Below are positions 2 through 64,000 of a stretch of DNA of 64,000 bases, piece after piece. Positions within the stretch are counted from its first letter, which is position 1. Every line of letters begins with the position of its first letter. The stretch comes from Candidatus Sulfomarinibacteraceae bacterium. GTDB taxonomy: Bacteria > Acidobacteriota > Thermoanaerobaculia > Thermoanaerobaculales > Sulfomarinibacteraceae. The translations under genes and the position numbers were made by a program. The notes beneath the pieces were generated by a model. That model did no database searches, was not told the origin of the DNA, and worked only from the letters and a program-made list of their open reading frames with translations. The DNA lies in NCBI GenBank assembly GCA_963823345.1, contig CAWGLE010000013.1, forward strand, positions 65,438 to 129,437. Direction: 5' to 3'.

Positions 2-2569
2 GTCGGCGTGTGGGACGCCGCGACCGGCGAAAATGTCCGGTTTCTGCGCGGCCACAAGGGGGCTGCGACCGTCGTTCTCCCGGTGGGCGGGTCGATCGCC
101 GCCGGTGGCGAGGACGGCACCATCCGGTTGTGGTCGCTCGACAAGGGCGAATCCCAGCGGGTGATCCGGCTGGACAACCCGATCCATGATCTGGCGGCGA
201 AGGCCGACGGCTCGGGGCTGATCGCGGCCCTCGGCTCCCACGTCAACCTGGTGCCCTTGAGCGAGCCCTCAGCCTCGCCCCTGCCGCTGGTCCTCGCCGA
301 GTCGGCGGCGTCCGGCGAGCTCGCCCGTCGAGAGCGCCAGTTTCAAGAGCACCTGGGTCGGGCGCGCGAGCTCCTGCGCACGGAGGCGGTGGCGGAGGCG
401 GTGGGTCCGTTGCGACAGGCCCGGGCGGTGCCGGGATACGAGCTCCACGAGGAGGCACTCGACCTGTGGAACGGAGTGCTGGCCCACTTCCCGAAGGCCG
501 AGTCCCGCGCCGTCGTCGAGCTGCGCAGATTCAGCGGCGGACGCGGTCCTTTGACCGCATGCGGTCTGACGCCGGACGGGTCGAAGATACTGGTCGGCGG
601 CGCCGACGGGTCGCTGATCGCGTTCGACTCGCACACCGGGGACGAGATCTTCGCCGTTGCGGCCCACCCTCAGAGCGTGACCGCCCTCGCCGTGAGCGCG
701 GACGGCGAAATGGCGGCGACCGCATCGCGAGACGGTTCGGTCGGGGTGTGGCGGATTGCTGACGGCGAGAGACGTTACCGTTTCGGAGGCGGCGACGCGG
801 CGGTGCGGTCGGTAGTTTTTGCGCGGGGCGACCGGGCGGTGATCGCCGCCGGCGACGACAAGGTCGTCCGCGTGTGGCGGCTGGACGAAACCGCACGCGC
901 CGAGACGGTCGGCGGGTGCGACGACGCGGTCTCGGATCTCGACGTGAGCGCGGACGGACGGTTTCTGGTCGGTGGCGGGTGGGACAATCTGGTCACGGTG
1001 TGGAACCTCGGTCGGCGGGTCGAGCTGCGGCGGATGGAAGGCCACGAGGGGATGGTTCACGCCGTCGCCGTCAGCCCCGATTGCCGGCTCGTGGCGTCGG
1101 CCGGAGACGACGGCACGGTGCGCCTCTGGGACCTCGAAAACGGCAGAATCTGGCGCACCCTTTCCGGTCACGATGATGCGGTGCTGGCGGTGGCGTTCAC
1201 ACCCGATGCGCGCCACCTCCTTTCGGCCGGCAAGGACGCCACCGTTCGTCTCTGGGACGCCCGCACGGGAAGCGCGGTCCGGGTGGTCAAGGGCCACGCG
1301 GGGGGCGTCGCCGATCTGGTGGTCGGTCGCGACGGCGGGACGGCGGTCTCGGTCGGATCGGATGGAAGTGCGCGTCTCTGGTTTCTCGACTGGGAGCCGG
1401 AGCTCGCCGAACGCGGCCCGTGGGACGACCGGGTCCGTCCCTTCCTGCAGGTGTTTCTGAGACAGCGTGAAGGAGATTCCCCGGAGGGGGCGCCGCCGAC
1501 GTGGTCGGACCAAGAGCTCGCAGAGCTGCTCGAGGACCTGGGGCGGCGCGGGTTCGGCTGGCTCGCCCGTGAACGCGTCGAGCAGGAGCTCGAGAGGCTC
1601 GTCGCGTTCCGCGGCGAGAGCCGGGCCGAGGAGCAGGAAAAGGCCCGCGAGCAGGCCAGGCGAAGGGCTCGGCAGGTCAGGGTTGCGCCGGTCAAGGAGA
1701 TCGCCGAGGGTCTCTCGCGGAATCTCGGGCTCAAGGCGGCGGCGGTAGCGGCGGCGGTGATTGTGGTCCTGGTTGCGCTGTGGAGCCTGACCTCACCCTC
1801 CGGATCGGTGAAGTACGGCCGTGCCTACCACGAGATCGGTGCGACGGTCGAAGGCCGCGCGCTCCGGGTGGACCAGGGGACCGTGGTCGCCTACCAGACC
1901 GGAGTTTCGGGGGGCTCGCGTGACTGCGGTCAGGAGGAGTTCTCGGACCTCGTGCGGGTGGCGCTCAATGCCGAGAGCCTCCGCACGCCGCCGCCGGACC
2001 CCGGCGTCGGCGCCGACAAGGGGTTTCGGGAACGCTACGCCAACGCCGTCAACTGCGTCGGCAAGCTGGGCGAGAAGGATCTGATCCCGCAGGTGTTGCA
2101 ACGTGCCGCCAAAGGGCTCCACCCGAAGAGGACGGAGGACCTGGTCGGAGTGCTGGTCGGCATCGGCGCCGCGCAGGATCCCCGGATCGAGAGCGCACTT
2201 ACCGATCCGTCGGCGTCGGTGCGGCACCTCGCCGCGCTGACCCTGGTCTATGGCAGCGATGACCACGGTGCGGCAGTCCTCTTCAAGGCGCTTGAGGGGG
2301 ACGACCGGCGCGGGGTCGAGGCCGCGGCGTCGGTGCTGACCGATTTGATGTGTCTCGGTGTGATCAACGAAGACGAGGCCTTCGAAACGGCGCGCAGGTT
2401 CTGTCAGAACATCGACCCCGAGGTCCGGCGGAACGCCGTCCGGACGCTGGTTCTTTTCGAGTACGAGAAACCCGTCCGCGAACTGCTCGAAGGCGCCCTC
2501 GACGACTCGGATGCCGAGGTCGCAGCGGCCGCCCGCGAGGTCAGAGACACCATCGAGAGGGTGGATTAG
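2..2569 (+). CDS. WD40-repeat protein (5' end outside the window) with a charged linker, one predicted TM helix and C-terminal HEAT-like repeats
   Basis: ORF track gives 8..2569, but the frame stays open to base 2 (VGVWDAATGE), so the N-terminus lies upstream. Repeated WD endings: IRLWSL, VGVWRI, VRVWRL, VTVWNL, VRLWDL, VRLWDA, ARLWFL. An E/R-rich stretch is followed by the hydrophobic segment AAAVAAAVIVVLVALWSL. HEAT-like units follow (DPSASVRHLAALTL, DPEVRRNAVRTLV, DSDAEVAAAAREV). Confidence 0.8.
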   Translation, partial: VGVWDAATGENVRFLRGHKGAATVVLPVGGSIAAGGEDGTIRLWSLDKGESQRVIRLDNPIHDLAAKADGSGLIAALGSHVNLVPLSEPSASPLPLVLAESAASGELARRERQFQEHLGRARELLRTEAVAEAVGPLRQARAVPGYELHEEALDLWNGVLAHFPKAESRAVVELRRFSGGRGPLTACGLTPDGSKILVGGADGSLIAFDSHTGDEIFAVAAHPQSVTALAVSADGEMAATASRDGSVGVWRIADGERRYRFGGGDAAVRSVVFARGDRAVIAAGDDKVVRVWRLDETARAETVGGCDDAVSDLDVSADGRFLVGGGWDNLVTVWNLGRRVELRRMEGHEGMVHAVAVSPDCRLVASAGDDGTVRLWDLENGRIWRTLSGHDDAVLAVAFTPDARHLLSAGKDATVRLWDARTGSAVRVVKGHAGGVADLVVGRDGGTAVSVGSDGSARLWFLDWEPELAERGPWDDRVRPFLQVFLRQREGDSPEGAPPTWSDQELAELLEDLGRRGFGWLARERVEQELERLVAFRGESRAEEQEKAREQARRRARQVRVAPVKEIAEGLSRNLGLKAAAVAAAVIVVLVALWSLTSPSGSVKYGRAYHEIGATVEGRALRVDQGTVVAYQTGVSGGSRDCGQEEFSDLVRVALNAESLRTPPPDPGVGADKGFRERYANAVNCVGKLGEKDLIPQVLQRAAKGLHPKRTEDLVGVLVGIGAAQDPRIESALTDPSASVRHLAALTLVYGSDDHGAAVLFKALEGDDRRGVEAAASVLTDLMCLGVINEDEAFETARRFCQNIDPEVRRNAVRTLVLFEYEKPVRELLEGALDDSDAEVAAAAREVRDTIERVD

Positions 2570-2787
2570 TCGGCGGCGAGGAGAGACTGCTCGACGTCGT
2601 CCCAGTCGAGGAGGAGAACTTCGGCGGGGGGCAGGGCCAGAGACCTCGTGAACTCGTCATCCAGGTCCGCGAGGTAGGACTCGAGCGCGTGGCGGAAGAT
2701 CTGCGCCCGCGACGAGTCGAAGGCCTTTGCCGCGCGGTCGACGCCGTCGACCAGCGAGTCGGGCAGTGTCGCGCTGATCTTCTTCAT
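2566..2787 (-). CDS. Ribbon-helix-helix (CopG-like) DNA-binding protein, antitoxin-like, no partner seen
   Basis: The internal ATG at 2787 gives a 73-aa product, MKKISATLPDSLVDGVDRAAKAFDSSRAQIFRHALESYL..., with a strand-helix-helix pattern. The longer 2566..2931 ORF reads through REP repeats. The 3' end overlaps the WD40 gene stop by 4 nt (convergent). Confidence 0.6.
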   Translation of the reverse strand: MKKISATLPDSLVDGVDRAAKAFDSSRAQIFRHALESYLADLDDEFTRSLALPPAEVLLLDWDDVEQSLLAAD

Positions 2788-2872
2788 ACGAAGCCCCTCC
2801 AGGCTTCTGAGTGATAGCAGCTTCACCGGGGGTGCTGATGTGATGCGGGTCACTTTCCCCGCCTTCCAGTCC

Positions 2873-3036
2873 TCGTGTGGGGCACGCGTCCCGCGTGCCG
2901 GGCGGGTGGGGTTGGGCGTGGGGGAGCCCACACGAAATTCAAAGGTTTTCCCCTCTCAACCGCCCGCCCGGCAGCCGGGACGGCTGCCCCACAACCGCTT
3001 CAGGATCTGGCCACTTGTGGGGCACGCGTTTCGGTG
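2873..3036. repeat. Cluster of three REP-like hairpin units (forward, reverse, degenerate forward)
   Basis: First unit, about 2875-2912: GTGGGGC-ACGCG-TCC-CGCGT-GCCGGGCGGGTGG. Second unit, about 2958-2996, is the reverse-complement type CCCGGCAGCCGGGACGGCTGCCCCACAA. Third unit from 3013 is the partial TTGTGGGGCACGCGTTTCGG. The same family recurs at 5.45, 12.2, 14.3, 21.8, 50.0 and 63.9 kb. Confidence 0.85.
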
Positions 3037-3051
3037 ACTGGCGGCACGGGG

Positions 3052-4923: not shown

Positions 4924-5415
4924 ATGTACGAAAAGAGTATCGAGCTTCTCAATACCGCGATCGCCGATGAGCTGGCGGCCATCCACCAGTACATGTACTT
5001 CCACTTCCGGTTGGACGACCTCGGTTACGCGCCGCTCGCCAATCTGTTGAAGATGACCGCGATCCAGGAAATGCAGCACGCCGAGATGATCGCCGAACGC
5101 ATCCTCTTTCTCGGCGGCGACGTCGAGATGAAGGTCGGTCGCGAAATCGAAAAGATCCACGACGCGGAGGGCATGCTCAAGAAGGCCGACGCATTGGAGC
5201 AGGACGCCATTCAAATGTACAACCGCTTCGCCAACGAGTGCGCTCAGAATGCGGACTCGGGGACCAAGAAGCTCTTCGAAGAGCTGGTGGCCGCCGAGGA
5301 AGGCCACTGGGACCAGTTCGACCAGCAGTCGGAGCACGTCAAGCGCTTCGGCGAACAGTACCTCGCGCTGCAGTCCTTCCAGAGCGGCCCGCCGGAGGGT
5401 GGTGCCGCGCAGTAG
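4924..5415 (+). CDS. bfr: Bacterioferritin
   Basis: 163 aa with a ferritin-like four-helix pattern: ELAAIHQYMYFHF and IQEMQHAEMIAERILFLGG. This includes the Met aligned with the Bfr haem ligand and the di-iron E..H motifs. GAAGGAGG lies 6 nt upstream of the ATG. Confidence 0.9.
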   Translation: MYEKSIELLNTAIADELAAIHQYMYFHFRLDDLGYAPLANLLKMTAIQEMQHAEMIAERILFLGGDVEMKVGREIEKIHDAEGMLKKADALEQDAIQMYNRFANECAQNADSGTKKLFEELVAAEEGHWDQFDQQSEHVKRFGEQYLALQSFQSGPPEGGAAQ

Positions 5416-5417
5416 CA

Positions 5418-5615
5418 GCGTTGCACGTTAAAACGTTAGAACGTGAGAACGTTCCCGCCACCCACCCGGCAGCCGGGACGGCCGCCCCACAAAGGTCCTC
5501 AATCCCGATGATGCATTGTGGTGCGGGCGTCCCGCCCGCACTTCTTCTTGAATACCTATGAGCGTGGGGCGGTTCGGCGGAACGTTCTAACGTGTAACGT
5601 TCCAACGTTTCAACG
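5418..5615. repeat. Composite intergenic element: octamer array, REP pair, inverted octamer array
   Basis: Left ACGTTNNN x4 array at 5418-5455. Reverse REP at 5454-5494 (CCCACCCGGCAGCCGGGACGGCCGCCCCACAA). Forward REP at 5514-5541 (TTGTGGTGCGGGCGTCCCGCCCGCAC). Right array at 5579-5615. The right array is close to the reverse complement of the left one. The element lies between the convergent bfr and cytochrome genes. Confidence 0.9.
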
Positions 5616-5688
5616 ATTCTCCCGCTTTCCGGCCTGTACGAAAAAGCGGGCGCCGCAGCGCCCGCTGTTTCGATTCGGTGCCTGAAGC

Positions 5689-6103
5689 TCAGTGCTTGCC
5701 GGGCTCGAGTGCGACGCCTCGCCTTTCATACGTCGCGTAGGCCTCGAGCGCGATCATCTGGCGGTCGTCGAGGGCGAGGGTCTCCCCCTCGAGCGGGTTC
5801 ATGATGCACCAGTTGATCATTTCGCGGAAGGTCGCGACCCGGCCCAGCTGCTGCTGGAACTTGGGGTAGGTCTCGGGGTGGGTGTTGGTTGCGTTGGGGT
5901 GGCACTGGCCGCAAGCGACGCCGTTGGTGCCGAGCTTCGGGCTGCCCCACAGCGCGCGGCCCTCGGTGACGACCGTCATGAACTCGCCCTCCCAGCGTTC
6001 CAGGTCCTTGTCGGTGAACTCGTCGGCCTGGAGGCCGTAGCCGACCAGGATACGACGCGGCGGCCACGAAGGCGATCGCGACCCACAGGTCTTTCTTGAA
6101 CAT
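5689..6103 (-). CDS. Periplasmic monohaem c-type cytochrome, apparent +1 frameshift
   Basis: The ATG at 6103 has AGGAGG 7 nt upstream and encodes the signal peptide MFKKDLWVAIAFVAAAS. The mature part with CGQCH is in the 5689..6108 frame. The frames have to be joined near 6052-6058. Length is 415 nt = 3n+1. Confidence 0.75.
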
Positions 6104-6113
6104 GGCAAACCTC

Positions 6114-7193
6114 CTAGTACTGCGTTTGCGGCGGGATCCGGTCTGCCGGGTCCTGGAATTTGGTGTCTTCAGGCTGCCCGGTCTCCCGGTTGAACGCCAC
6201 CGTCCGATTGGTGTTGTTGTAGAGGTTGTACTCGAGATCGACGCGCCCGGTCTTGACGTTGATGAACTGCCATCCGGTGGCGTCGCGCTCGAAGAACGGG
6301 TTGGCCCGGTTCATCGGCACCGTGATCTTCGGCATGTGGCTTTCCGCCTGCGCGTAGGCCCGCGGGTAGGGCCACGGCCAGGCGGTGGCCATCACCGCGT
6401 TGAAGCTGATGTTGCCGATCTGGTTGTACTGGATCTGGTGGACGTGGCCGTACACCACCGAGGCGTCGTTGAAGGGTTGGAGCAGGGCCTGCACATCTTC
6501 GGCGTCCTCGGTCCAGAAGTTCCAGCCTTTATAGATCTTCTGGATGGGGGAGTGGGAGAAGACGACCACCGGAGTGCTCTTGGCCACCCCCGACAGGTCC
6601 TTGGCGAGCCACTGGCGCTGCTTCTCGCCGACCATGAAGGGTGATCCGTTGGGGTTGTCGAGACCGGCCATCTCGAGCATCCGCTGCTCAGGCGTGGGCC
6701 AACGATCGAAGGTCCACTCGTCGTAGGTGAGGATGCTGTTCAAGACCACGAAGTGGACCCCCTTGTGGTCGAAGCTGTACCAGTGGGGGCCGAAGAGCTC
6801 CGACCAGTACTCGCCGAGGTCGAGATAATAGTCGTGCTCTCCCATGACCATGTGGGTCGGGTAGTTCAGCTTCGCGAGCATTTCGGCGCCGTGGTCGAGC
6901 TCCGGCTTGCTGCCGAGCTGGGCGAGGTCGCCGCCGAACATCACGAAGTCCGGTTTGGGTTGCAGGAGATTGGTCTCGGCGACCGCACGGATCAGACCGC
7001 GGTCCCAGTTGTAGACGAAACGTGCGCCCGAGATGTGCTGAATGTGGGCGTCTGAGATATAGGCGAACGTGAAGTTTTTCGTGGGGTCGGCGAAGGCCAA
7101 CTCCACCATGCTGACGGGCAGGGCGCTGGCCGCAGCGACGGCGCCGGCACCTTTGATGAATCCGCGTCGGGTCAGTTTTGAGTCAGTCATCAT
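6114..7193 (-). CDS. Tat-exported calcineurin-like metallophosphoesterase
   Basis: Twin-arginine signal MMTDSKLTRRGFIKGAGAVAAASALP. Metallophosphoesterase motifs: ISDAHI, GGDLAQ, GEHD, VVLNS, GHVHQ. Confidence 0.85.
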   Translation of the reverse strand: MMTDSKLTRRGFIKGAGAVAAASALPVSMVELAFADPTKNFTFAYISDAHIQHISGARFVYNWDRGLIRAVAETNLLQPKPDFVMFGGDLAQLGSKPELDHGAEMLAKLNYPTHMVMGEHDYYLDLGEYWSELFGPHWYSFDHKGVHFVVLNSILTYDEWTFDRWPTPEQRMLEMAGLDNPNGSPFMVGEKQRQWLAKDLSGVAKSTPVVVFSHSPIQKIYKGWNFWTEDAEDVQALLQPFNDASVVYGHVHQIQYNQIGNISFNAVMATAWPWPYPRAYAQAESHMPKITVPMNRANPFFERDATGWQFINVKTGRVDLEYNLYNNTNRTVAFNRETGQPEDTKFQDPADRIPPQTQY

Positions 7194-12098: not shown

Positions 12099-12155
12099 AC
12101 CGGATGTCGATGTCCACGGTGCTCGAAGAGCATCCCGTTTCGGGGGTGGCTGGGT

Positions 12156-12414
12156 GGAAACGTTTGAACGTTGAAACGTTTGAACTTTGCAACGTTGCGT
12201 CCCACCCACTTGGTAGCCGGGACGGCTGCCCCACAGGGGAGGAACCACCGCGACAATTGTGGGGCACGGGTCCCGCGTGCCGGGTGGGTGGTGACTGGTT
12301 CCAACAGCTCTGAGCACTCGAGCGGCTATTCTCGGTGGGGGGTTGGTCGGAAAATCCGAAATCCGAAATCCGAAATCCGAAATCCTAATTCCCAATTCCT
12401 AATTCCTCGTTCCT
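12156..12414. repeat. Composite intergenic element: octamer array, REP pair, heptamer array
   Basis: AACGTTNN-type array at 12156-12197. Reverse REP at 12199-12238. Forward REP at 12254-12293 (TTGTGGGGCACGGGTCCCGCGTGCCGGGTGGGTGG). AAATCCG/AATTCCT heptamers at 12351-12414. Confidence 0.9.
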
Positions 12415-12447
12415 CCCTGCTACCATGACCGTGTTCGGAGGTGGTCG

Positions 12448-14178
12448 ATGGCCAAGGCGCGGACGGTTTTTCTGGGTGCCGGATGCCTGCTGGTATTTCT
12501 CGGCGTGATCATTTTCGCGATGCTCGTGCGGGGGCTTTCGGTCCCGTCGCTGCCCGACGAGATGGTGGTGTCACTGCGGCTCGCAGGCCCGATCGCCGAG
12601 GTCACGGCGGAGGACCCGTTGTCGGAGCTCATGGGCGATCAGCCCACCAGCATGAGCAATCTGCGCAAGGCGCTGACCCGCGCCGCCGAGGATGACCGGG
12701 TGCGCGGACTGCGGCTGCGGATCGACAGCATCGGCGGAGGCTTCGCCACCGCGGCGGAGCTGCGCACGCTGATCGCGAGAGTCGGCGCTGCGGGCAAGTG
12801 GACCGCTGCCTACCTGGACACCGCCGGAGAGTTCGCTCCGGGCAACCTGGTCTATTACGTTGCCTCGGCCTGCGACGAGGTGTCGATGAACCCGCAGGGC
12901 GACCTCAACCTGATCGGCCTCTCGTCGAGGACGCCGTTCATCCGCGGCACCTTCGACAAGCTGGATATCCAGGCCGAGTTCCCCGGTCGCGGCGATTACA
13001 AGACCGCGCGGTTCATGTACACCGAAACCGGGTTCACGCCCGCGCAGCGGGAAATGACGGAGTGGTTGATCGACTCGCTGATGGAGCGGCTGACCGGCGA
13101 CATCGCGAGCAGCCGCGGGTTGTCAGCCGAAGAGGTGCGCAGCCTGATCGACCGCGCGCCGTTTCTCGGTGACGAGGCGGTCGAGGCCGGGTTGATCGAC
13201 CGGCTCGAGAACCTGGGAGAGTTTGACGATCGCCTCGAAGAGCGCGCGCCCGACGCCAGGTCGGTGGGTGTTCGTGCCTATTTGCATCAGGGTCGATTCG
13301 CGCCCAGGGGCTCGAAGATCGCGGTGGTGACCGCGGTCGGATCGATCATGCGCGGTTCCAGCGGCGAGAGCTTCAACCCGCTTTTCGGCGGCCAGGTCAT
13401 GGGGGCGGATACGATCTCGAATGCCTTCAAAGACGTTCGTGAGACCGCCGGTATCGAGGCGGTCGTGTTCCGTATCGATTCGCCCGGCGGCAGCGCCGTG
13501 GCGTCCGAGATCATCCGTCAGGAGATGGTGCGGACCGCGCTCGAAGTGCCCGTGGTCGTGTCGATGGCGAACGTGGCGGGCTCCGGCGGGTACTGGATCA
13601 CCTGCGGCGCGCAGCGGATCGTCGCCGAACCGGTGAGCCTTACCGGCTCCATCGGCGTGTTCGCGGGGCACCTCAACACCTCGGGTTTCTGGTCGGGCAA
13701 GCTGGGTGTGACCTACGGTCGCATCGACGAAGGTGCGAACGCCAACATCTACGGCGATCTCGAGAACTGGACCGACGAACAGCGCGCCATCGTCGATCGC
13801 ATGCTGGATCGGATCTACGACGACTTCGTGGCGCGCGTGGCGGCCTCGCGGGGTATGACTCCGGAGGCGGTGGACGCGATCGGCCGCGGCCGGGTGTTCA
13901 CGGGCGTCCAGGCCGTGGAGAACGGTCTGGTGGACGTCCTGGGCGGTTTCGACGTCGCGTTGGCCGAGGCCAAGAGGCTGGCGGATATCGACGCCGATGC
14001 GGAGGTCGAGCTGGTGCAGTTTCCGCGGCCGGTGCCGTGGTGGCAGGAGCTGACACGGAAGCGCGGATCCGACCAGGTGGCCCTCGAGGCCAAGGTCGAT
14101 TTCCTCCAGAATTGGATCACCAGCGGCACCCTCGACACCCCGGGCGTGGTGTGGATGCCGCCGATACTGATTCAATAG
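12448..14178 (+). CDS. sppA: Signal peptide peptidase SppA (protease IV, S49, two-domain 67K type)
   Basis: 576 aa with an N-terminal TM helix (FLGAGCLLVFLGVIIFAML). Two ClpP/crotonase-like S49 halves are present. The second half contains VVVSMANVAGSGGYWITCGA...SIGV. GGAGGTGG lies upstream of the ATG. Confidence 0.85.
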   Translation: MAKARTVFLGAGCLLVFLGVIIFAMLVRGLSVPSLPDEMVVSLRLAGPIAEVTAEDPLSELMGDQPTSMSNLRKALTRAAEDDRVRGLRLRIDSIGGGFATAAELRTLIARVGAAGKWTAAYLDTAGEFAPGNLVYYVASACDEVSMNPQGDLNLIGLSSRTPFIRGTFDKLDIQAEFPGRGDYKTARFMYTETGFTPAQREMTEWLIDSLMERLTGDIASSRGLSAEEVRSLIDRAPFLGDEAVEAGLIDRLENLGEFDDRLEERAPDARSVGVRAYLHQGRFAPRGSKIAVVTAVGSIMRGSSGESFNPLFGGQVMGADTISNAFKDVRETAGIEAVVFRIDSPGGSAVASEIIRQEMVRTALEVPVVVSMANVAGSGGYWITCGAQRIVAEPVSLTGSIGVFAGHLNTSGFWSGKLGVTYGRIDEGANANIYGDLENWTDEQRAIVDRMLDRIYDDFVARVAASRGMTPEAVDAIGRGRVFTGVQAVENGLVDVLGGFDVALAEAKRLADIDADAEVELVQFPRPVPWWQELTRKRGSDQVALEAKVDFLQNWITSGTLDTPGVVWMPPILIQ

Positions 14179-14400
14179 TTTTGAGTTTTCAGTTTTGAGT
14201 TCTGAGTTCCCGCCCCAATTGCAGCCGGGAGCCGGCTTCGCCTTTGGCTGCGCCGAGACAGGCAGATTGCCTGACAGTTCTTCATGATCGGTCCTTGTGG
14301 TGCGGCCGTCCCGGCCGCACGTGCGGGCGGGACGCCCGCACCACAACGGGTCGAACCGCGTGTGGCGGAGGTGCCCGGCATCCTCTCGGGAAGCGCGCCC
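14177..14400. repeat. Composite intergenic element: AGTTTTG heptamer array, back-to-back REP hairpins, short copy of the 85-bp element
   Basis: AGTTTTG x5 at 14177-14210. TTGTGGTGCGGCCGTCCCGGCCGCAC is immediately followed by GTGCGGGCGGGACGCCCGCACCACAA (14293-14347). 14358-14400 matches the ends of the 39936-40105 repeat unit but lacks its central hairpin. Confidence 0.85.
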
Positions 14401-14428: not shown

Positions 14429-14900
14429 TTAGCCGGTTTTTCCGATCACGACCGTGACCCGCCCTCGCGTGACGTCGTCGCCGGCGGCATCGCGCACGAC
14501 CACCGCTGCCTGCAACTCGCCCGTAAACCCCGACGGCGGCGGTTCGCAGCTGCCTTCGGCGGTCACCGTCCCGCGCGCCTTCTTCACGAAACTCCGACTC
14601 CAACCGGACCGGGATCATCCGTGTTCCGGGGTGCATGGAGGCGATGATGGAGAGGCTGCCTGAAAGCTCGATCAGGTTGGTCAAAGCCACGGCGTGGACC
14701 GATCTCAGGTGGTTGCGAACCGCCTTGCGGTCGCGCATGGTCACCACGGCTCGACCCGGCTCCAACACCGCGATCCGGGCGCCGATGGTGCCGGTGTAGG
14801 GGGCGAACCGGCCCACCGCACGGCTGAAGAGCCAGCGGCCGAAGCTCGAGCCTTTCGCACGATTCCACCTCTCGACAACGGCCTGTTCCATCCCAGCCAT
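14429..14900 (-). CDS. Hotdog-fold thioesterase-like protein (DUF4442/PaaI-like), apparent +1 frameshift
   Basis: The ATG at 14900 has GGGAGG upstream and gives MAGMEQAVVERWNRAKGSSFGRWLFSRAVGRFAPYTGTIGARI...RLESEF. Removing one base near 14588 continues the protein as VKKARGTVTAEGSCEPPPSGFTGELQAAVVVRDAAGDDVTRGRVTVVIGKTG*. Length is 472 nt = 3n+1. Confidence 0.7.
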
Positions 14901-15006
14901 GCAGCCTCCCTGAGCTCGTCTCTGCCATGCTACGCGAGCCCGCCGGGGTCGACAATGAGCGCTCGTTGACACCGGGGAGCGCCCGTGGTCCCATGGAATC
15001 GATCAG

Positions 15007-21793: not shown

Positions 21794-21862
21794 GGTGCAG
21801 GCGGGACGCCCGCACCACAAAACCGCGCATTCAACGTTTTTGTGGGGCAGTCGCCCGGGCGG
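21794..21862. repeat. REP pair (reverse unit plus degenerate forward unit)
   Basis: GGTGCAGGCGGGACGCCCGCACCACAAAACC, then TTTTGTGGGGCAGTCGCCCGGGCGG. It starts directly after the addA stop. Confidence 0.8.
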
Positions 21863-21865
21863 ATG

Positions 21866-21890
21866 AAAAAACCCGGCGGAACCGCCGGGC
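21866..21890 (-). terminator. Rho-independent terminator (minus strand)
   Basis: The minus strand reads CCCGGCGG-TT-CCGCCGGG followed by TTTTTT. It could terminate sucCD read-through or a short independent transcript (see findings). Confidence 0.7.
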
Positions 21891-22007
21891 CATCGCAGAG
21901 AGAAACTCCTCCTCCCTCACTACGAAGCTGGAATTATAGCGGTATTTTCCCGACTTCAAGATGTTTCACTTCGTGTTGCATGCTTCGGAGCCCTTCACGT
22001 TCCAGCA

Positions 22008-22160
22008 GTTAGCTTTTAGCTGTTAGCTGGATTCCAATCCCAATACGGCACATCTGAAATGAAGAAACGCCCCTGGATTCCCGGGGGCGTGAGTTGATTA
22101 TTTCGTCCGTCCGAAAGCTAACAGCCAACCGCTGACAGCTAATAGCTAACAGCTAACCGC
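22008..22160. repeat. Inverted heptamer arrays (GTTAGCT / AGCTAAC) flanking a core with a GC hairpin
   Basis: Left array GTTAGCT-TTTAGCT-GTTAGCT at 22008-22030. Right array AGCTAAC-AGCCAAC-CGCTGAC-AGCTAAT-AGCTAAC-AGCTAAC at 22116-22160. Core hairpin ACGCCCC...GGGGCGT at 22067-22090. The element ends 2 nt from the sucD stop. Confidence 0.85.
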
Positions 22161-22162
22161 TC

Positions 22163-24320: not shown

Positions 24321-24370
24321 GGAATTTCGGATTTCGGATTTCGGATTTCGGATTTTGCCCCACCCGCCCT
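24321..24370. repeat. GGATTTC heptamer array plus C-rich box in a divergent promoter region
   Basis: GGAATTTC-GGATTTC x3-GGATTTT, then GCCCCACCCGCCC. Confidence 0.85.
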
Positions 24371-30907: not shown

Positions 30908-31069
30908 GAGAATTTCGAATTTCGGATTTCGGAATTCCACCCTCCCTCCCGCATTGGATTCAGGGTCTCTGGACGCCCATTTTCCGAGATCTGCTGTTCC
31001 TCGATCGTGTTGACCCGCACGAGAGATGGGCCGAAAAATCCGAAATCCGAAATCCGAAATCCGAAATAT
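30908..31069. repeat. Inverted heptamer arrays (GAATTTC/GGATTTC and GAAATCC) flanking a roughly 90-bp core
   Basis: Left array at 30908-30938, followed by the C-rich box ACCCTCCCTCCCGC. Right array AAATCCG x4 at 31031-31069. The right array is the reverse complement of the left unit. Confidence 0.9.
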
Positions 31070-35444: not shown

Positions 35445-36074
35445 ATGCGGCCGATCACGCTGCCGAACTTCATCACCCTGACCCGGATGGCGATGGTGCC
35501 CGTGTTCGTGATCGCGGTTTCGGACCGGGACTTCCGCCTCGCGTTGTGGATATTCATCGTTGCAGGTCTCACGGATGCTTTCGACGGCTTCCTGGCGCGG
35601 CGTATGGACATGAAGAGCCGTTTCGGCGCCTACCTCGATCCCATCGCCGACAAGATGCTGATCACCGTCGCCTACATCGCCCTGACCTTTCCGCAGGGCC
35701 AGGCGGTGGTGATTCCGCTGTGGCTGACCATCCTGGCTCTCTTTCGCGATTTCGTGATCATGGTGGTGGCCGGAGTGTTGTACATGGTCGAAGGTCTCAG
35801 GGAGTTCCCGCCGTCGCCCTTGGGCAAGGCCACCACCTTCGCCCAGGTCGTGACCGTGGCGGTGGTCCTGCTGGCCAACGTGTTCGAGGTGTCTCCGTGG
35901 ATCCCGACGGTGTGCTTCTACCTGTCCTTCGTTCTCGTGATCGGGTCGGCCTTCAACTACATCTACCGCGTCAGCCGGTTCGTCGAAGAAGCCCGGCAGG
36001 CACGGGAGAGCGAAGGAGGAAGTGGATGGGAGTGCGAATTCGGATTCGGAATTGAATGTGGAATTAGGAATTAG
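35445..36074 (+). CDS. pgsA: CDP-alcohol phosphatidyltransferase (PgsA-like)
   Basis: The CDP-alcohol motif is DAFDGFLARRMDMKSRFGAYLDPIADK, and there are multiple TM helices. The ATG at 35445 gives the usual short N-terminus (MRPITLPNFITLTRM). An alternative GTG at 35376 overlaps the coaX stop. The last about 13 codons (ECEFGFGIECGIRN) are encoded by the heptamer array. Confidence 0.85.
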   Translation: MRPITLPNFITLTRMAMVPVFVIAVSDRDFRLALWIFIVAGLTDAFDGFLARRMDMKSRFGAYLDPIADKMLITVAYIALTFPQGQAVVIPLWLTILALFRDFVIMVVAGVLYMVEGLREFPPSPLGKATTFAQVVTVAVVLLANVFEVSPWIPTVCFYLSFVLVIGSAFNYIYRVSRFVEEARQARESEGGSGWECEFGFGIECGIRN

Positions 36075-36160
36075 GAATGCCACCCCACCGCCAGGAACCC
36101 GAAAATGGGCCGGTTGGGATGGCCGAAATTCCTCAATTCCTAATTCCTCATTCCTAATTT
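36036..36160. repeat. Inverted heptamer arrays (GGAATTA / TAATTCC type) flanking a short C-rich core
   Basis: Left array GAATTCG-GATTCGG-AATTGAA-TGTGGAATTAGGAATTAGGAATG at 36036-36079. Core: CCACCCCACCGCC.... Right array GAAATTCCTCAATTCCTAATTCCTCATTCCTAATTT at 36125-36160. Confidence 0.9.
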
Positions 36161-39837: not shown

Positions 39838-39897
39838 GGGATTTCGGATTTCGAATTTCGGATTTCGGATTTCGGATTTCCCGCCCACCCCCCCCAC
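39838..39897. repeat. GGATTTC heptamer array plus C-rich box
   Basis: GGGATTTC-GGATTTC-GAATTTC-GGATTTC x3, then CCGCCCACCCCCCCCAC. It starts 2 nt after the preceding stop. Confidence 0.9.
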
Positions 39898-39935
39898 AGA
39901 CGATAAGCACTCGAGTGCTCTGGGTGGGTGGGACG

Positions 39936-40105
39936 GCGTGCGGCGGAGGTGCCTGGCTCCCGGCCCGTCCGACGGGCCGGCGTGCCTGGCATCCTCCCGG
40001 GAAGCGCGTGCGGAACGTCAGCGTGCGGCGGAGGTGCCTGGCTCCCGGCCCGTCCGACGGGCCGGCGTGCCTGGCATCCTCCCGGGAAGCGCGTGCGGAA
40101 CGTCA
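39936..40105. repeat. Perfect tandem duplication, 2 x 85 bp
   Basis: 39936-40020 and 40021-40105 are identical by eye. The unit is GCGTGCGGCGGAGGTGCCTGGCTCCCGGCCCGTCCGACGGGCCGGCGTGCCTGGCATCCTCCCGGGAAGCGCGTGCGGAACGTCA. Each unit contains the hairpin CGGCCCG-TCCGA-CGGGCCG. The last 3 nt of copy 2 are the stop codon of the 40103..41413 gene. Confidence 0.95.
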
Positions 40106-41413
40106 GATTTCCGCGGCCCAGCTCTTGCCCTGTTTGCGAACGCCGCCCTCGAGGGTCTTGAGGAAACGCGACCGCAGCTGGTCCGACAAGAGGGCCTTCT
40201 TGACCGGTGGGAGTTTGAGAAAGCCGCCGACCAGGCCGCGGAGAAAGGCCTGGCTTCCGCTCGCGGGGTTGTCGAAGAGCTGGTGCTGCAGGGTCCCGCG
40301 ATCCAGGGCCGACAGGATCACGCGCTGGAACGTGCTTTCCGGTGGGATCACCCGTTGCGCGCGCTTCTCGAGCTTCATGGCGCCGGTCGTGCAGGCGTTG
40401 GCGCAGACGCCGCACCCGAGACAGAATTCCAGGTCGACGGCGGGCTTCTTTTTCTTTCGTGTCCCGGGGTTGTCGTCCGCGACCATCGTGATGGCGTCGA
40501 TCGGACACGCCTTCTCGCAGTGGTTGCACCCTTTGCAGATTTCGTCGTCGGTGGAGGCGATGAAGCTCGAGGTGACGACGACGGAGGTGTAGCCGTGATC
40601 GGTGAGGCCGGCCAGGGCGTTGCAGCAGCACCCGCAGCAGTGGCAGATGAAGGTGACGTTGCGCTGCACGTTGTCGGCATTGAGGACCAGACCGAGTTCG
40701 CGGGACCGTTCGACGTTGTCCAGCATCTCGGACTTCGAGACCTCGCGGGCGAGATCGTGCCGGATCAGGTAGTCGGCCGAGTACCCCATTGACGAGCAGT
40801 TGTCCATCGGGGCGTCGCAGGCATGGCCGAGGTGGTGCTTCTCGTGCCGGCACGAGCACAGACCCATCGAAAACCGTTCGTGCCGGTCGATGATCTCCTT
40901 CGCCTTCTCGTAATCGAGGATCTCGACGTGCTCTTCGTCGCGGATGGTGCCCTCGTACGGCAGGGCGCGCATGATGGTGGTGGTCTCGCCGTGCCCGAAG
41001 TTCGCGTCGAAATACACACCGTCGGGGCCCATGTACTGGTGGAAGAGCCCGGCGATCTTCGTGCGGTCGAGATCGGGGCCGGTGCGCATCATCGTCAGCT
41101 CGAAGATGCCGATCACCAGCGGCGACACGGTATAGCGGTACGAGCCGTGGATCTCGATGTCCATCACCAGGCCCTTGTCGCAGAGACGGTCGAGGCGGTG
41201 TCGGAGAGCGGTCGGGTCCTCGCCGGTCACGGCAGCGAGCCGGCGCAGAGTGGACAGGCCGTTGGGCATGCGGGTGATCAGGTCGGCCTCTTCCGGTGTG
41301 TAGAGCTCCCGCAGGATCTCACCGAGGGTTTCGTTCCACGGCGTGCGGGTGGCCAGGCTGTCGATCTTGCGGCCCAGCTCGCGATAGACGTCTTTGCCGA
41401 CGAGGTGTCCCAT
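40103..41413 (-). CDS. Multi-cluster 4Fe-4S ferredoxin-domain protein, function unknown
   Basis: 436 aa with Cys clusters CSCRHEKHHLGHAC, CHCCGCCC, CKGCNHCEKACP and CLGCGVCANAC. Confidence 0.75.
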   Translation of the reverse strand: MGHLVGKDVYRELGRKIDSLATRTPWNETLGEILRELYTPEEADLITRMPNGLSTLRRLAAVTGEDPTALRHRLDRLCDKGLVMDIEIHGSYRYTVSPLVIGIFELTMMRTGPDLDRTKIAGLFHQYMGPDGVYFDANFGHGETTTIMRALPYEGTIRDEEHVEILDYEKAKEIIDRHERFSMGLCSCRHEKHHLGHACDAPMDNCSSMGYSADYLIRHDLAREVSKSEMLDNVERSRELGLVLNADNVQRNVTFICHCCGCCCNALAGLTDHGYTSVVVTSSFIASTDDEICKGCNHCEKACPIDAITMVADDNPGTRKKKKPAVDLEFCLGCGVCANACTTGAMKLEKRAQRVIPPESTFQRVILSALDRGTLQHQLFDNPASGSQAFLRGLVGGFLKLPPVKKALLSDQLRSRFLKTLEGGVRKQGKSWAAEI

Positions 41414-41554: not shown

Positions 41555-41584
41555 TCGAAATCGCGAACTCCGAAATCCGAACGG
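41555..41584. repeat. Short degenerate AAATCCG-type heptamer array
   Basis: TCGAAATCGCGAACTCCGAAATCCGAACGG, between the Fe-S protein start and the mutM stop. Confidence 0.6.
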
Positions 41585-42456: not shown

Positions 42457-42491
42457 CATTCCTAATTCCTAATTCCGAATTCCTAATTCCG
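42457..42491. repeat. TTCCTAA heptamer array
   Basis: CATTCCTAATTCCTAATTCCGAATTCCTAATTCCG. The xth stop codon (42483-42485) lies inside the array. Confidence 0.85.
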
Positions 42492-46208: not shown

Positions 46209-47153
46209 CTACTCCGTTTCGTCGGTTCCGGGTTCCTCGTCGTCGGTCCCGGTCATATCCGGCATGAAATTACCGATATTCCCCATCAGCCCCTGGAGCA
46301 TCGGCCCCACCGTGGCGTCGAACTCCTGCGACGTTTTGATCGTCTCGAGCTGGCCGACAAAGCCCTCGGCCATCGCGAGTCCGAACATCGCCTGGCCCTT
46401 GAGCTCCTGCACCTCTTCCGGCGTGAGCTCGTCGAGTCGGGCATGAGCCTCCGCCACCTTGGCCTGCCACTGTTCCGCCATCTCCGACGGCACCCAGCGG
46501 TTTTCGACCCGCGTCAAAGAGATCTCTTCGGGGTCCTCGCCGGCTGCGGTGACTCTGAGCCGGGCGGTGTCTCCGGCTTCCTCGAGGACCTCGATCTGCA
46601 GCGAGTCGAACAGAACGAACGGATCCTTGCCCTCCTCGGCCGGGATGGCATCCGCCTGGGCCATGATCTGAGCGCCGGTGCCCGCGAGATACGCCTGCCA
46701 GTCAATCGCGGCGAGGCCGGCGAGGGTCGAGATCTCGCTCCCGAAAAACGTCCGCACGACGGCCAACGTCGGGGTCATTTTGGCCTCGATGGCGGCGACG
46801 TCAGCACCGGTGTTCTGCACCGTTTCGCTCGCCAGGATGATGTCCTGTTTGGACTGGATCACGTCGATGAATTTAAGGGCGAGGGCCATCGAGCGGTCGT
46901 AGAGCTCGGGGTCCATCTTGGCCGCGAAGCTCGCGGTGAGCCCGCTGATGTCGGCGCGGTAGCTTTCGGGCAGAGCCTCCCAGATGATCTCCGGGTGGTT
47001 GTCGGCGAAGCCCTGGGCCACGGCCGTGATGGTGCCGTCCGGCGTGGACGGGAAGGCGGGCTGGGCAGCGACGATCTCGGTTTCCTGGGCGCAACCGAGT
47101 GCCACAACGCACACAAACACGGCGATCACGGGTCGGCGAAACATCGTCAGCAT
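46209..47153 (-). CDS. Lipoprotein, function unknown
   Basis: The ATG at 47153 has GGAGGTGA upstream and gives MLTMFRRPVIAVFVCVVALGCAQE, with a lipobox. The tail is acidic. The ORF track's 504-aa version reads through upstream repeats. Confidence 0.75.
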   Translation of the reverse strand: MLTMFRRPVIAVFVCVVALGCAQETEIVAAQPAFPSTPDGTITAVAQGFADNHPEIIWEALPESYRADISGLTASFAAKMDPELYDRSMALALKFIDVIQSKQDIILASETVQNTGADVAAIEAKMTPTLAVVRTFFGSEISTLAGLAAIDWQAYLAGTGAQIMAQADAIPAEEGKDPFVLFDSLQIEVLEEAGDTARLRVTAAGEDPEEISLTRVENRWVPSEMAEQWQAKVAEAHARLDELTPEEVQELKGQAMFGLAMAEGFVGQLETIKTSQEFDATVGPMLQGLMGNIGNFMPDMTGTDDEEPGTDETE

Positions 47154-47270
47154 TTTCGTCACCTCCAAGTAGGCGGAGATTATCGCACACAGTTGGCCGG
47201 GCCCGGTCGTCTGGCCTGTGGTCGGGTGTGCGGTACAGGTTTCTGGGAAGCAATTCAGGCCTCTTTGAGT

Positions 47271-47471
47271 GTCATCCCGAGGGAGCGAAGCGAGTCGAGG
47301 GATCTGGGGGGCGGCTACCGGAAGGGCCTCGACTGAAGCCACCGCCCAGATTCCTCCGCTCGCTCCCTTCGTTCGCTCGGTCGGAATGACAGCGACAAGG
47401 GCGCCCATCTGCTCGCTCGGTCGGAATGACAGCGACAAGGGCGCCCATCTGCTCGCTCGGTGGGAATGACC
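47271..47471. repeat. GTCATYCC..GAGCGA element: inverted copy plus 40-bp tandem repeats (about 2.5 units)
   Basis: 47271-47303, GTCATCCCGAGGGAGCGAAGCGAGTCGAGGGATC, faces its imperfect reverse complement at about 47349-47390. The tandem unit GCTCGCTCGGTCGGAATGACAGCGACAAGGGCGCCCATCT occurs at 47371-47410 (first base differs), at 47411-47450 (exact), and as a partial copy to 47471. Confidence 0.9.
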
Positions 47472-47536
47472 TCTGGCTGAAATGACCGTATCGGTCAGGG
47501 CAGGCTTTTCGCAGGTGGCTCTCTGGAAATCCAGCC

Positions 47537-47716
47537 TAACCCGCATTATTCGCGAGGATTCGTCGCGAGAGGCGCGAGGTGCAAGCGGGGTGGCGATTTC
47601 GCAAGATGAGGGAGCGGAGGCGTACTTGCAGTACGTCGAGCGAGCGAATCGAGAAAGCGCCGCCACGCGCAGCGGATCGCGCCTCGCAGTAGAAGACTCG
47701 AGAATAATGCGGGCTA
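47537..47716. other. Long imperfect hairpin (about 180 nt), candidate structured RNA or MITE-like element
   Basis: Outer arms: TAACCCGCATTATTC / GAATAATGCGGGCTA. Inner pairings: GAGGCGCG / CGCGCCTC. Apical perfect hairpin: CGTACT-TGC-AGTACG at 47621-47635. The arms align along most of their length when one is reverse-complemented. Confidence 0.7.
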
Positions 47717-47732
47717 ACGCCATTCCCAGCGG

Positions 47733-48853: not shown

Positions 48854-48891
48854 CGAAACTTTCACACGTTCAACGTTCTAACGTTCAACGG
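48854..48891. repeat. ACGTT-type 7-8 bp array
   Basis: CGAAACTTTCACACGTTCAACGTTCTAACGTTCAACGG, between the two VWFA paralogues. Confidence 0.8.
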
Positions 48892-50022: not shown

Positions 50023-50175
50023 GAGGTGCAGCCGGGACGGCCGCACCACACGTCGCTCGGCTTCGGTCTCGCGGTGAAGGGTTTGTAGGAAAGCCGTCCC
50101 GGTCGCCGGGTTCCAGCCTCGCCCGTAAACGGCGAACGTTTCAACGTTCCGACGTTCTCACGTTGAAACGTTGAG
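50023..50175. repeat. Composite element: REP unit(s) plus ACGTTNNN octamer array
   Basis: GAGGTGCAGCCGGGACGGCCGCACCACACG at 50023-50052. A degenerate unit, AGCCGTCCCGGTCGCCGGG, lies at about 50090. The array GAACGTTTCAACGTTCCGACGTTCTCACGTTGAAACGTTGAG is at 50131-50175. Confidence 0.85.
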
Positions 50176-58734: not shown

Positions 58735-58966
58735 GATGAAGGATGAAAGATGCAGGATGCAGGATCTGAAAACACTGGAGTTGAGGATCGGTCAATGCCA
58801 TTGTCAGAACGAGGTCCCTAACGACAGAAAACGGCTGTCCAGGTCGTCTACTGAGACACGGGTAAACCGAGATGCTGGGAACATCTCTGAAGGTGGGCCA
58901 AGGCCCACCCTACGAACCCGCTCGAAACTTGGGTCCGAAGTAGGGTGGGCCTTGGCCCACCTTCAG
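58735..58966. repeat. GATGMAG heptamer array plus perfect 27-bp inverted repeat of the GGTGGGCC hairpin family
   Basis: Array GATGAAG-GATGAAA-GATGCAG-GATGCAG-GATCTGA at 58735-58772. CTGAAGGTGGGCCAAGGCCCACCCTAC (58887-58913) and its exact reverse complement (58940-58966) are present. Each arm is itself a GGTGGGCC..GGCCCACC hairpin. Confidence 0.9.
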
Positions 58967-59058
58967 ACCCGCCGCGGTCGGGGTGGAGCCTGAATGTGAT
59001 TTCGAGCAGTCCACTTTGCCGTCTTGGACACGAGTGATCCTGGATTCTGAATCCTCCA

Positions 59059-61325: not shown

Positions 61326-61416
61326 GGGCGAAGAGTAACAGCGAACGGGAATTGTTGAATTGTGGTCCCGGGTTGTAAAGGACGGCGGGTGAAGTGCGCC
61401 CGCGGCGGAGGAATGA

Positions 61417-61824
61417 ATGGACCGACGAGCAGACAACCCTTTCAACATCGCGGCGGCCCCCGAGCCCGCCGGCGGCCTCGGGCAGCCGGTGGTCGAAACC
61501 GACGCTTCAGCGGACCCGAAGACCCGCGTCAAGAAAATGGTCGCGTCGTCGCCGATGTTCGTCTTCATCAAAGGAACCCCGCAACGACCGATGTGCGGTT
61601 TTTCGGCCAACACCGTCGCCGTGATGGACTCGTTGGATGTGCCGTACCGGACCTTCGACGTGCTGTCCGACGAGGCGATCCGCACCGCGGCCAAGGAGGT
61701 CGCCGGTTGGCCGACCTTCCCCCAGGTCTATGTCCGTGGAGAGTTCATCGGCGGCAACGACATCGTGACCGAGATGCACGCCAGCGGCGAACTGCAGTCG
61801 ATGGTCACCGGGGACGGATCGTGA
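61417..61824 (+). CDS. grxD: Monothiol (CGFS) glutaredoxin
   Basis: Motifs: FVFIKGTPQRPMCGFS and WPTFPQVYVRGEFIGGNDI. GGAGGA lies upstream of the ATG. The N-terminal extension is long. Confidence 0.85.
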   Translation: MDRRADNPFNIAAAPEPAGGLGQPVVETDASADPKTRVKKMVASSPMFVFIKGTPQRPMCGFSANTVAVMDSLDVPYRTFDVLSDEAIRTAAKEVAGWPTFPQVYVRGEFIGGNDIVTEMHASGELQSMVTGDGS

Positions 61825-63762: not shown

Positions 63763-63771
63763 TTGGCGATT

Positions 63772-64000
63772 CTGAAGGTGGGCCAAGGCCCACCCTACGG
63801 GTTCGCCCGATATGTGGGTTCGGGGTGGGGTGGGCCTCGGCCCAGCCTACGGGTTCGCCGGATATGTGGGTCCGGGGTGGGGTGGGCCCTGGCCCACCTT
63901 CAAAGTCTGCTCCCGGCAGCCGGGACGGCTGCCCCACAAACGATACCGACAGGCTGGCTTGTGGGGCACGCGTCCCGCGTGCCGGGTGGGTGGGTGGCAA
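63772..64000. repeat. GGTGGGCC-hairpin direct repeats followed by a REP pair (runs to window edge)
   Basis: 63772-63905 holds three GGTGGGCCnnGGCCCAsC hairpins, separated by two copies of TACGGGTTCGCCsGATATGTGGGTyCGG. 63911-63952 is a reverse REP. 63957-63998 is a forward REP (TTGTGGGGCACGCGTCCCGCGTGCCGGGTGGGTGGGTGG). Confidence 0.9.

Follow-up and report, generated by a model that had tools for sequence, protein, structure and literature searches.

What kind of element is the short GC-rich hairpin that recurs between the genes of this acidobacterial contig, and which known class of repeats does it belong to? We addressed this question for the whole analyzed stretch of 64,000 nt (hereafter the window; GC content 66%) and for the matching loci of related genomes. 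Very probably, the units are REPs of the GTAG superfamily that bear the variant tag GTGG, are arranged in inverted pairs similar to BIMEs and REPINs, represent two systems, and are linked to RAYT genes.

Read on its own strand, each unit comprises the head TTGTGG, an 8-nt arm, the loop TCC, and a complementary 8-nt arm, and in some units a G-rich tail (GGGYGGGTGG) is found 3' of the second arm. The search pattern TGTGGKGC-N5-TCC-N5-GCM, which places no constraint on the five central positions of either arm and tolerates no more than one mismatch, yielded 12 matches in the window compared to 0.10 ± 0.30 in 100 shuffled sequences. Covariance model R1, built from these 12 copies (A1/R1) and run against the whole window with filters off, scored them at 43-54 bits, while the next match reached 15.5 bits. 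This gap of 28 bits between the intact copies and the background means that the repeat family is sharply bounded. The count of at least 14 copies given in the earlier note thus includes 12 intact units, the remaining two (at 3013 and 21837) being truncated or degenerate with 11.7 and 15.5 bits, respectively. Altogether, two or three degenerate units (21840-21867, 3015-3050, and possibly 50083-50115) lie beside intact ones as their decayed partners; the last of them, a weak match of 9.8 bits with a GTAG head, was missing from the earlier list. Flanks and loop had been described as conserved, which holds for TGTGG (invariant in 12 of 12 copies) and does not hold for the tail CCGGGTGGGTGG, confined to some of the G-type units defined below and missing from T-type units. 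A search of the whole window against Rfam gave no match at the gathering thresholds, and only chance-level matches at E ≤ 1 in the region 12100-14400.

The nucleotide that follows the head separates two types of units: (i) G-type units, in which the head is followed by G, the stems are GGCAGCCG and GGCACGCG, and the G-rich tail is found in most copies, and (ii) T-type units, in which it is followed by T and the stems are TGCGGGCG and TGCGGCCG. Reading the stems copy by copy, we recovered the same four stem types as previously described. All units are intergenic and fall into seven sites, each of which follows the 3' end of at least one gene and none of which is located between divergent genes, according to hand inspection of the gene contexts with Pfam.

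The first site (2875-3050) follows an S41 peptidase gene (-) and precedes a small RHH gene (-) in tandem. It includes a G-type unit at 2875..2911 (+; stem GGCACGCG/CGCGTGCC, a perfect 8-bp stem, loop TCC, tail GGGCGGGTGG; 50.1 bits), which is extra to the pair beside it, a G-type unit at 2958..2994 (-; stem GGCAGCCG/CGGCTGCC, tail GGGCGGGCGG; 54.2 bits), and its truncated partner at 3015..3050 (+), where only the head TTGTGG and the 5' arm GGCACGCG are left. The ORF 2566-2931 (-) at this site has a ribbon-helix-helix (CopG) domain at residues 52-88; since its first ~20 codons overlap the unit 2875-2911, translation probably begins downstream of this unit. At the second site (5456-5552), between the convergent genes for ferritin (+) and a cytochrome c (-), a G-type unit at 5456..5492 (-; stem GGCGGCCG/CGGCTGCC, one G·T pair, tail GGGTGGGTGG; 49.7 bits) and a T-type unit at 5516..5540 (+; stem TGCGGGCG/CGCCCGCA; 43 bits) form a mixed pair. 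The third site (12200-12293) lies between tandem genes for a metallo-β-lactamase-fold protein (+) and an S49 peptidase (+), and contains G-type units at 12200..12236 (-; stem GGCAGCCG/CGGCTACC, C·A mismatch; 47 bits) and 12257..12293 (+; stem GGCACGGG/CGCGTGCC, tail GGGTGGGTGG; 49.5 bits). Between the same S49 peptidase gene (+) and a convergent DUF4442 gene (-), the fourth site (14295-14346) has T-type units at 14295..14319 (+; stem TGCGGCCG/CGGCCGCA; 46.7 bits) and 14322..14346 (-; stem TGCGGGCG/CGCCCGCA; 46.9 bits).

The fifth site (21796-21867) is flanked by the convergent genes for an AddA-like helicase (+) and sucD (-). Its T-type unit at 21796..21820 (-; stem TGCGGGCG/CGCCTGCA, G·T pair; 45.8 bits) starts ~10 bp past the stop codon of the AddA-like gene, and the degenerate partner at 21840..21867 (+; TTGTGGGGCAGTCGCCCGGGCGG; E 0.42) completes a second mixed pair. 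After a Tricorn-like protease gene (-), in tandem context, the sixth site (50027-50115) comprises a T-type unit at 50027..50051 (-; stem TGCGGCCG/CGGCTGCA, G·T pair, head GTGTGG; 43.1 bits) and the possible decayed partner at 50083..50115 (+; TTGTAG GAAAGCCG TCC CGGTCGCC; E 5.7; inverted repeat I22). The seventh site (63903-63995) follows a TPR gene (+), with the next gene outside the window, and contains G-type units at 63903..63939 (-; stem GGCAGCCG/CGGCTGCC; 45.6 bits) and 63959..63995 (+; stem GGCACGCG/CGCGTGCC, tail GGGTGGGTGGGTGG; 54.1 bits). The three copies reported earlier to have G·T pairs indeed have them at 5468, 21796, and 50027, and the one copy of opposite sense carries C·A at 12212; the unit at 12258 has a G·G mismatch as well.

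The earlier description of mostly reverse-then-forward, BIME-like pairs is borne out at five sites, where the GTGG ends face each other at a distance of 19-23 bp. In the G-type pairs (2958/3015, 12200/12257, 63903/63959), the CAGCCG stem is invariably found in the left (-) unit and the CACGCG stem in the right (+) unit. The T-type pair 14295/14322 is arranged in the opposite order, forward-then-reverse, with the GTGG ends outside and 2 nt between the hairpins. The window therefore shows the arrangement of BIMEs, in which two REP types alternate in inverted orientation with short regular spacing. Folded as single-stranded DNA, a single unit has a minimum free energy of -10.5 to -11 kcal/mol, and unit pairs fold as long imperfect hairpins (for example, -30.4 kcal/mol with z = -6.8 for 14295-14346). 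A REPIN would be a doublet replicated together with a conserved spacer; in the window the spacers differ from site to site, those of four pairs (CCGCTTCAGGATCTGGCCAC, AGGTCCTCAATCCCGATGATGCA, GGGGAGGAACCACCGCGACAA, and ACGATACCGACAGGCTGGC) having no evident similarity by eye, and shared spacers were found only in local duplicates (loci L123 and L118). Since the spacers are not conserved between sites, the pair is unlike a single replicating REPIN unit.

Similar repeats are widespread in other genomes. A second pattern, TTGTGGKGC-N3-CGTCCCG-N3-GCM, matches at least 116 loci in species-representative genomes; it fixes the head, the loop, and five of the eight stem pairs, and the locus counts are thus no census. 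Among the matches listed, 25 loci belong to Candidatus Sulfomarinibacteraceae MAGs, 10 to other Acidobacteriota, and ~65 to Planctomycetota, and the remaining ones to Verrucomicrobiales, Hydrogenedentota, Fimbriimonadaceae, Scytonema, and others, as tallied by record titles, where MAG labels may include mis-binned contigs. The head TTGTGG and the apical CGTCCCG are almost unchanged among the matches listed from Acidobacteriota, Planctomycetota, Verrucomicrobiota, Cyanobacteria, and others. At the three free stem positions, almost all of the 158 listed matches are complementary, with eight complementary combinations. Identical units are present in other genomes. Locus L009 is collinear with window positions 61346-63844 at 85% identity, which places the window in a related Sulfomarinibacteraceae genome, and keeps the 63903/63959 pair at the orthologous site; both genomes carry units at this one orthologous site compared, without insertion polymorphism. 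The ferritin protein of the window had no exact match in an index of contigs. The REP elements may still be mobile.

Several further observations concern these related loci. Five loci with labels including Alphaproteobacteria, Chondromyces, Deltaproteobacteria, and Bathyarchaeia (L004, L102, L091, L108, and L082) carry units of this REP family; the flanks of L004, L102, and L091 are typical of Sulfomarinibacteraceae (as are the tails in L004 and L102), and all five may be mis-binned MAG contigs. In Pirellulales STL-PLA33, T-type units form head-to-tail arrays (L025 475-693, L067 6229-6335, and L096 2196-2337) with a 36-45-bp period and pyrimidine-rich linkers, an arrangement not found in the window. 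Other G-type units have an insert of ~27-33 nt at or near the loop (L105 2060-2128 and 4525-4560; L123 ~2870-2915; L009 ~2790-2850). L105 and L123 have nearly the same insert, and that of L009 has the 9-nt core GGCGTAGCT in common with them in opposite orientation; it may represent a small REP-loop-targeting element or a long-loop REP variant.

The link to RAYT genes emerged from the same loci. As had been stated before, the 64-kb window has no RAYT gene, according to homology searches with E. coli RayT and to searches with a clade profile. The E. coli protein (from NC_000913) was compared with all ORFs of the scanned loci using phmmer, and in the Sulfomarinibacteraceae MAG locus L014 we found an ORF with E 1.5e-12 and a match to Pfam Y1_Tnp. 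This RAYT gene, broken by a frameshift, is flanked by (+) units with the CACGCG stem upstream and three (-) units with the CAGCCG stem downstream. In the window, the DUF4442 gene 14430-14972 (-) also appears frameshifted (it matches positions 1-86 of the 132 in the Pfam model and then continues in another frame), and the two cases together suggest indel errors in long-read MAG assemblies. The repaired L014 RAYT has 3000 homologues of ~207 aa, many of them named 'REP element-mobilizing transposase RayT' by JGI, and we scanned the contigs of six of them (L118-L123) for REP units.

The RAYT expected by the earlier note was thus found in relatives, where the repeats lie close on both sides of the gene for an HUH/Tyr transposase of 204-210 aa in five loci (L014, L118, L119, L120, and L123). 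Of these loci, three belong to Sulfomarinibacteraceae, either with confirmation or as likely members. The flanking units are G-type in L014, L118, and L123 and T-type in L119. The Sulfomarinibacteraceae contig L118 (protein P0009) has 10 units upstream and 5 units downstream of the RAYT gene, all of them G-type, and L123 (P0071) has the same G-type pairs as the window. In L119 (P0065), TGCGGGCG (+) and TGCGGCCG (-) are the exact stems of the window pair 14295/14322, and in L120 (P0088) the units are TGGTGG-TGCAGCCG and TGCAGGCG. The two other contigs have TTGTAG-CGCCCGCG-TCC units of the same geometry with the canonical GTAG tag (L121, P0104) and GTAG-tagged hairpins with other stems (L122, P0112). 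L120 is syntenic with L118, both containing BlaI/M56 genes, RAYT, and then genes for isochorismatase, PALP, and LiaF. Four of the RAYTs score above the curated cutoff of NCBIfam NF047646 (REP_Tyr_transpos; 80.6-90.3 bits versus 80). The HxH and Y...NPV motifs are invariant, with the HUH histidines and the catalytic tyrosine aligned with H59, H61, and Y115 of E. coli RayT. In the relatives, each REP system flanks its own single-copy RAYT paralogue, and by this analogy the genome of the window would encode both RAYTs.

The identification of the units as REPs, made previously from the letters of the window, is therefore supported: they are short palindromes with an 8-bp stem and a 3-nt loop, an unpaired GT[A/G]G tag stands directly 5' of the GC-rich hairpin, they are multi-copy and extragenic (12 intact units per 64 kb), and the same units flank RAYT genes in relatives. 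As side observations, the nine same-orientation G-type units upstream of the L118 RAYT gene (5289-5975) are mostly 64 bp apart, and one unit of opposite orientation adjoins the gene. CRISPR was rejected as a reading of the repeats, since the arrays beside RAYT genes repeat every 64 bp with identical 'spacers' and the window sites have one to three units each. We also considered and rejected the RAYT of the Planctomycetales contig L020 as a link to the window REPs. The REP on its flanks is another GTAG-tagged one (GTAGCGCCGGGC...; at 6470-7170, GTAG CGCCGGGC CTCTGT GCCCGGCG). The same contig has a T-type TTGTGG unit 5 kb away, indicating that several REP/RAYT systems coexist.

The stems had been thought to vary by compensatory changes, and we assessed this on 72 copies from the window and the 25 listed Sulfomarinibacteraceae loci. 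In this set, 98.9% of stem cells are paired, compared to 26-56% when the 3' partner was shifted by 1-3 columns as a control, and four of the eight stem pairs show a double-sided change. The stem variants are a handful of stems that recur unchanged in different genomes, and each stem pair goes with one RAYT paralogue; judged by the refuting condition that the earlier note itself had set, the window variants are thus clonal subfamilies. The four stems of the window represent two systems, each consisting of two partner stems and tied to a RAYT paralogue of its own, and not independent compensatory events. Orthologous copies decay without compensation, as in L009, whose copy has an uncompensated A-to-C change in the stem. 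Covariation is real only between subfamilies and between RAYT lineages: among 80 metagenomic RAYT loci found with a RAYT profile, 30 have perfect hairpins with a GT[AG]G tag next to the gene, no fewer than 15 different, fully complementary stems occur across RAYT lineages, and the RAYT clusters follow the REP type in a rough UPGMA clustering. This covariation indicates that the hairpin is under constraint, with each RAYT lineage having its own version.

The strand on which the hairpin folds, left unassigned in the earlier note, could be assigned from the imperfect pairs. Across 265 copies collected by a strand-symmetric scan that required at least six Watson-Crick pairs, the non-Watson-Crick stem cells include 88 G·T and 7 A·C (27 and 7, respectively, when unique stems are counted). 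Because A·C on this strand is G·T on the opposite one, the TTGTGG strand is the one under selection to fold, either as single-stranded DNA or as RNA.

The RNA option leads to the strongest of the rival explanations, in which the hairpins are primarily RNA elements that stabilize or terminate the 3' ends of upstream genes, and the RAYT association is incidental. The location of seven of seven sites downstream of a gene 3' end and the tolerance for G·U-compatible pairs on one strand are consistent with it, and one unit (5520-5542) satisfies a simple terminator pattern. However, most sites have units in both orientations, hence any transcript would contain one GTGG-sense unit per pair. The G-type units are followed by G-rich tails and lack T-runs, and this single unit is the only one of 12 to fit even a lax intrinsic-terminator pattern. 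Separate canonical terminator-like hairpins with T-runs exist in the same intergenic regions (5645-5666 and 21870-21891), and the window has 12 terminator-like sites compared to 10.8 in shuffled sequences. With no such enrichment and with units lacking T-runs, the terminator reading was rejected. The invariant GTGG tag and the clustering around RAYT genes would also be left unexplained. We consider a primary RNA role improbable, though it is compatible with the units being RAYT-linked REPs.

A second rival regards the units as MITEs of a DDE-type insertion sequence, or as operator sites of a regulon, rather than as RAYT substrates. The inverted 10-bp G-rich outer ends of G-type pairs (CCACCCACCC ... 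GGGTGGGTGG) resemble what such MITEs would have; however, T-type units have no tails, the pair borders show no evident target-site duplications, no DDE transposase is associated with the units, the sites are at 3' ends and not in promoter regions, and five RAYT genes are flanked by units. This alternative is very improbable. Although random GC-rich hairpins are common at 66% GC, with many 7-of-8 matches and weak covariance model matches, an origin of the family as chance palindromes has a negligible probability given 12 matches versus 0.10 expected, the 28-bit gap between true copies and background, and identical units in other genomes.

The REP sites of the window are accompanied by other small repeats. 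Tandem arrays of 8-bp period (AACGTTNN) at 5425-5453, 5581-5619, 12157-12196, 48857-48890, and 50135-50172 adjoin REP pairs, flanking the 5456-5552 pair on both sides, and the AACGTTNN motif is also found 3' of G-type REP tails in the relatives L009, L102, and L123. AT-richer arrays of 7-bp period (AAATCCG/GGATTTC, AATTCCT, AGTTTTG, and AGCTAAC) occur in many intergenic regions (12352-12407, 14177-14208, 22004-22161, 24324-24355, 30910-30936, 31036-31067, 36060-36159, 39839-39880, 41556-41581, and 42458-42490); several of them start or end beside a stop codon, and they are present in related MAGs. The G-rich box (GGGYGGGTGG) is also found without a REP hairpin beside heptamer arrays (24356-24370, 30937-30946, 39881-39935, and 12293-12345), and at two sites the module GAGCACTCGAG ... 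GGTGGGGGG is located between the G-box and the array. The stretch 39880-39935 was considered as an excised REP pair and rejected, since it matches this module beside an AAATCCG array, which also occurs at 12293-12345 next to an intact pair. REPs, G-boxes, and arrays may form a mosaic. An organized 3'-end intergenic architecture with a host function, composed in this lineage of the REP units, the G-box next to them, and the 7-8-bp micro-arrays, is conceivable but doubtful.

In addition, the window has a perfect 85-bp tandem duplication at 39936-40106, with no significant Rfam match; a related 34-bp copy is located at 14364-14397, right after the REP pair ending at 14346, and L068, from a different MAG, has a stretch that matches the 85-bp unit at 96-97% identity. 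Another hairpin repeat family (58886-58973 and 63771-63898) has the form GGTGGGCC-NN-GGCCCACC in a 52-bp unit repeated 2.3 times in tandem; it is located immediately before the last REP pair, on its upstream side, is ~89% identical to a stretch of L078, and is partly kept in L009. A 40-bp tandem repeat at 47373-47470 (2.5 copies, 98% matches) is apparently inside the ORF 46209-47723 (-).

How RAYT-linked REPs of this kind might arise is suggested by E. coli TnpA(REP), which binds the REP strand with GTAG 5' of the hairpin and requires all four bases (PMC3479197). The excess of G·T over A·C on the TTGTGG strand agrees with this mode of binding, and is indirect support for a RAYT that would act on its REP as single-stranded DNA. 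By analogy with this system, the acidobacterial RAYT would bind the hairpin of the TTGTGG strand when it becomes single-stranded, and the 5' tetranucleotide would serve it as a guide. The RAYT would then cleave and rejoin single-stranded DNA, by which the units would be generated, spread, and kept uniform, and copies landing downstream of genes would be tolerated and so persist. Effects on mRNA 3' ends or on DNA topology would be possible secondary effects. Bases A3 and G4 of GTAG are thought to specify the CT cleavage site of TnpA(REP) (PMC3479197), and by the same analogy GTGG might specify CC cleavage. It is doubtful that the GTGG REP/RAYT clade represents a single system, either ancient or spreading horizontally, in which the A-to-G guide change moves the cleavage site of the RAYT from CT to CC (or to CT via G·T).

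Because the same repeats flank a dedicated RAYT gene in related genomes, they belong to an ordinary and well-understood kind of bacterial repeat, found here in a little-studied acidobacterial lineage, and the window repeats reveal no new kind of system. They extend REP/RAYT systems to an uncultured marine and soil family of Acidobacteriota and show, as clean examples from nature, two paralogous RAYTs that each go with a separate pair of REP stems. RAYT and REP stems change together over 40-70% RAYT identity, and this joint change offers useful material for studying how Y1 nucleases recognize their hairpins and guides. For annotation, the family accounts for a large share of the intergenic repeats of this genome, and its sites may cause assembly and binning errors.

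Among known systems, IS200/IS605 elements have a Y1 HUH transposase that recognizes a single-stranded DNA hairpin and a 5' tetranucleotide, as proposed here; in contrast to the two ends of a transposase-carrying IS, the hairpins described above would be hundreds of dispersed gene-less units. The E. coli REP/BIME system with RayT (TnpA-REP, 'REPtron') has two REP types (Y and Z) that alternate in inverted orientation as in the window, and its gene is likewise located amid its own REPs, as in the relatives, with an alignable HUH motif and catalytic tyrosine. It differs in its GTAG tag (GTGG here) and in a bulged stem (perfect here), and the acidobacterial RAYT, known from sequence alone, is ~25% identical to it with an N-terminus longer by ~40 residues. 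The Pseudomonas REPIN-RAYT systems (Bertels & Rainey 2011, PMC3116915) share inverted REP doublets that can fold into one long hairpin, several RAYT/REP systems per genome, and apparently vertical inheritance of the RAYT (here L118, L120, and probably L014 at a syntenic position). Unlike Pseudomonas REPINs, the spacers here vary by site, and the doublet thus seems not to be copied as a whole.

The closest match is the GTAG superfamily (Di Nocera et al. 2013, PMC3733652), whose 24 REP families with a GTAG tag were described from Proteobacteria, Cyanobacteria, Chloroflexi, and the PVC group. These REPs have subfamilies with alternative complementary stem residues and frequent G·T pairs, form inverted dimers that are often heterodimers, are located between unidirectional or convergent genes, and flank RAYT genes (PMC3733652). 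Most GTAG-20 elements of Opitutus terrae have a GTGG tag, and only TIR-flanked Y1 transposases have been reported for Acidobacteria (PMC3733652). The host of the window, a member of Sulfomarinibacteraceae (Acidobacteriota), is therefore outside the phyla listed in that study, and its G-type units differ by their 10-nt G-rich tail. Compared by description rather than by consensus sequence, hence with no numbered family assigned, the window units share with this superfamily, and especially with the GTGG-tagged GTAG-20 and the PVC families, the unpaired GT[A/G]G tag at one end, together with the 8-bp GC-rich stem and the 3-nt pyrimidine loop. The alternative-stem subfamilies, G·T pairs, heterodimers, gene-end location, and RAYT flanking all match as well. 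The window family thus matches a known class of REPs in every feature compared, and its novelty lies in the host lineage and in the stems themselves.
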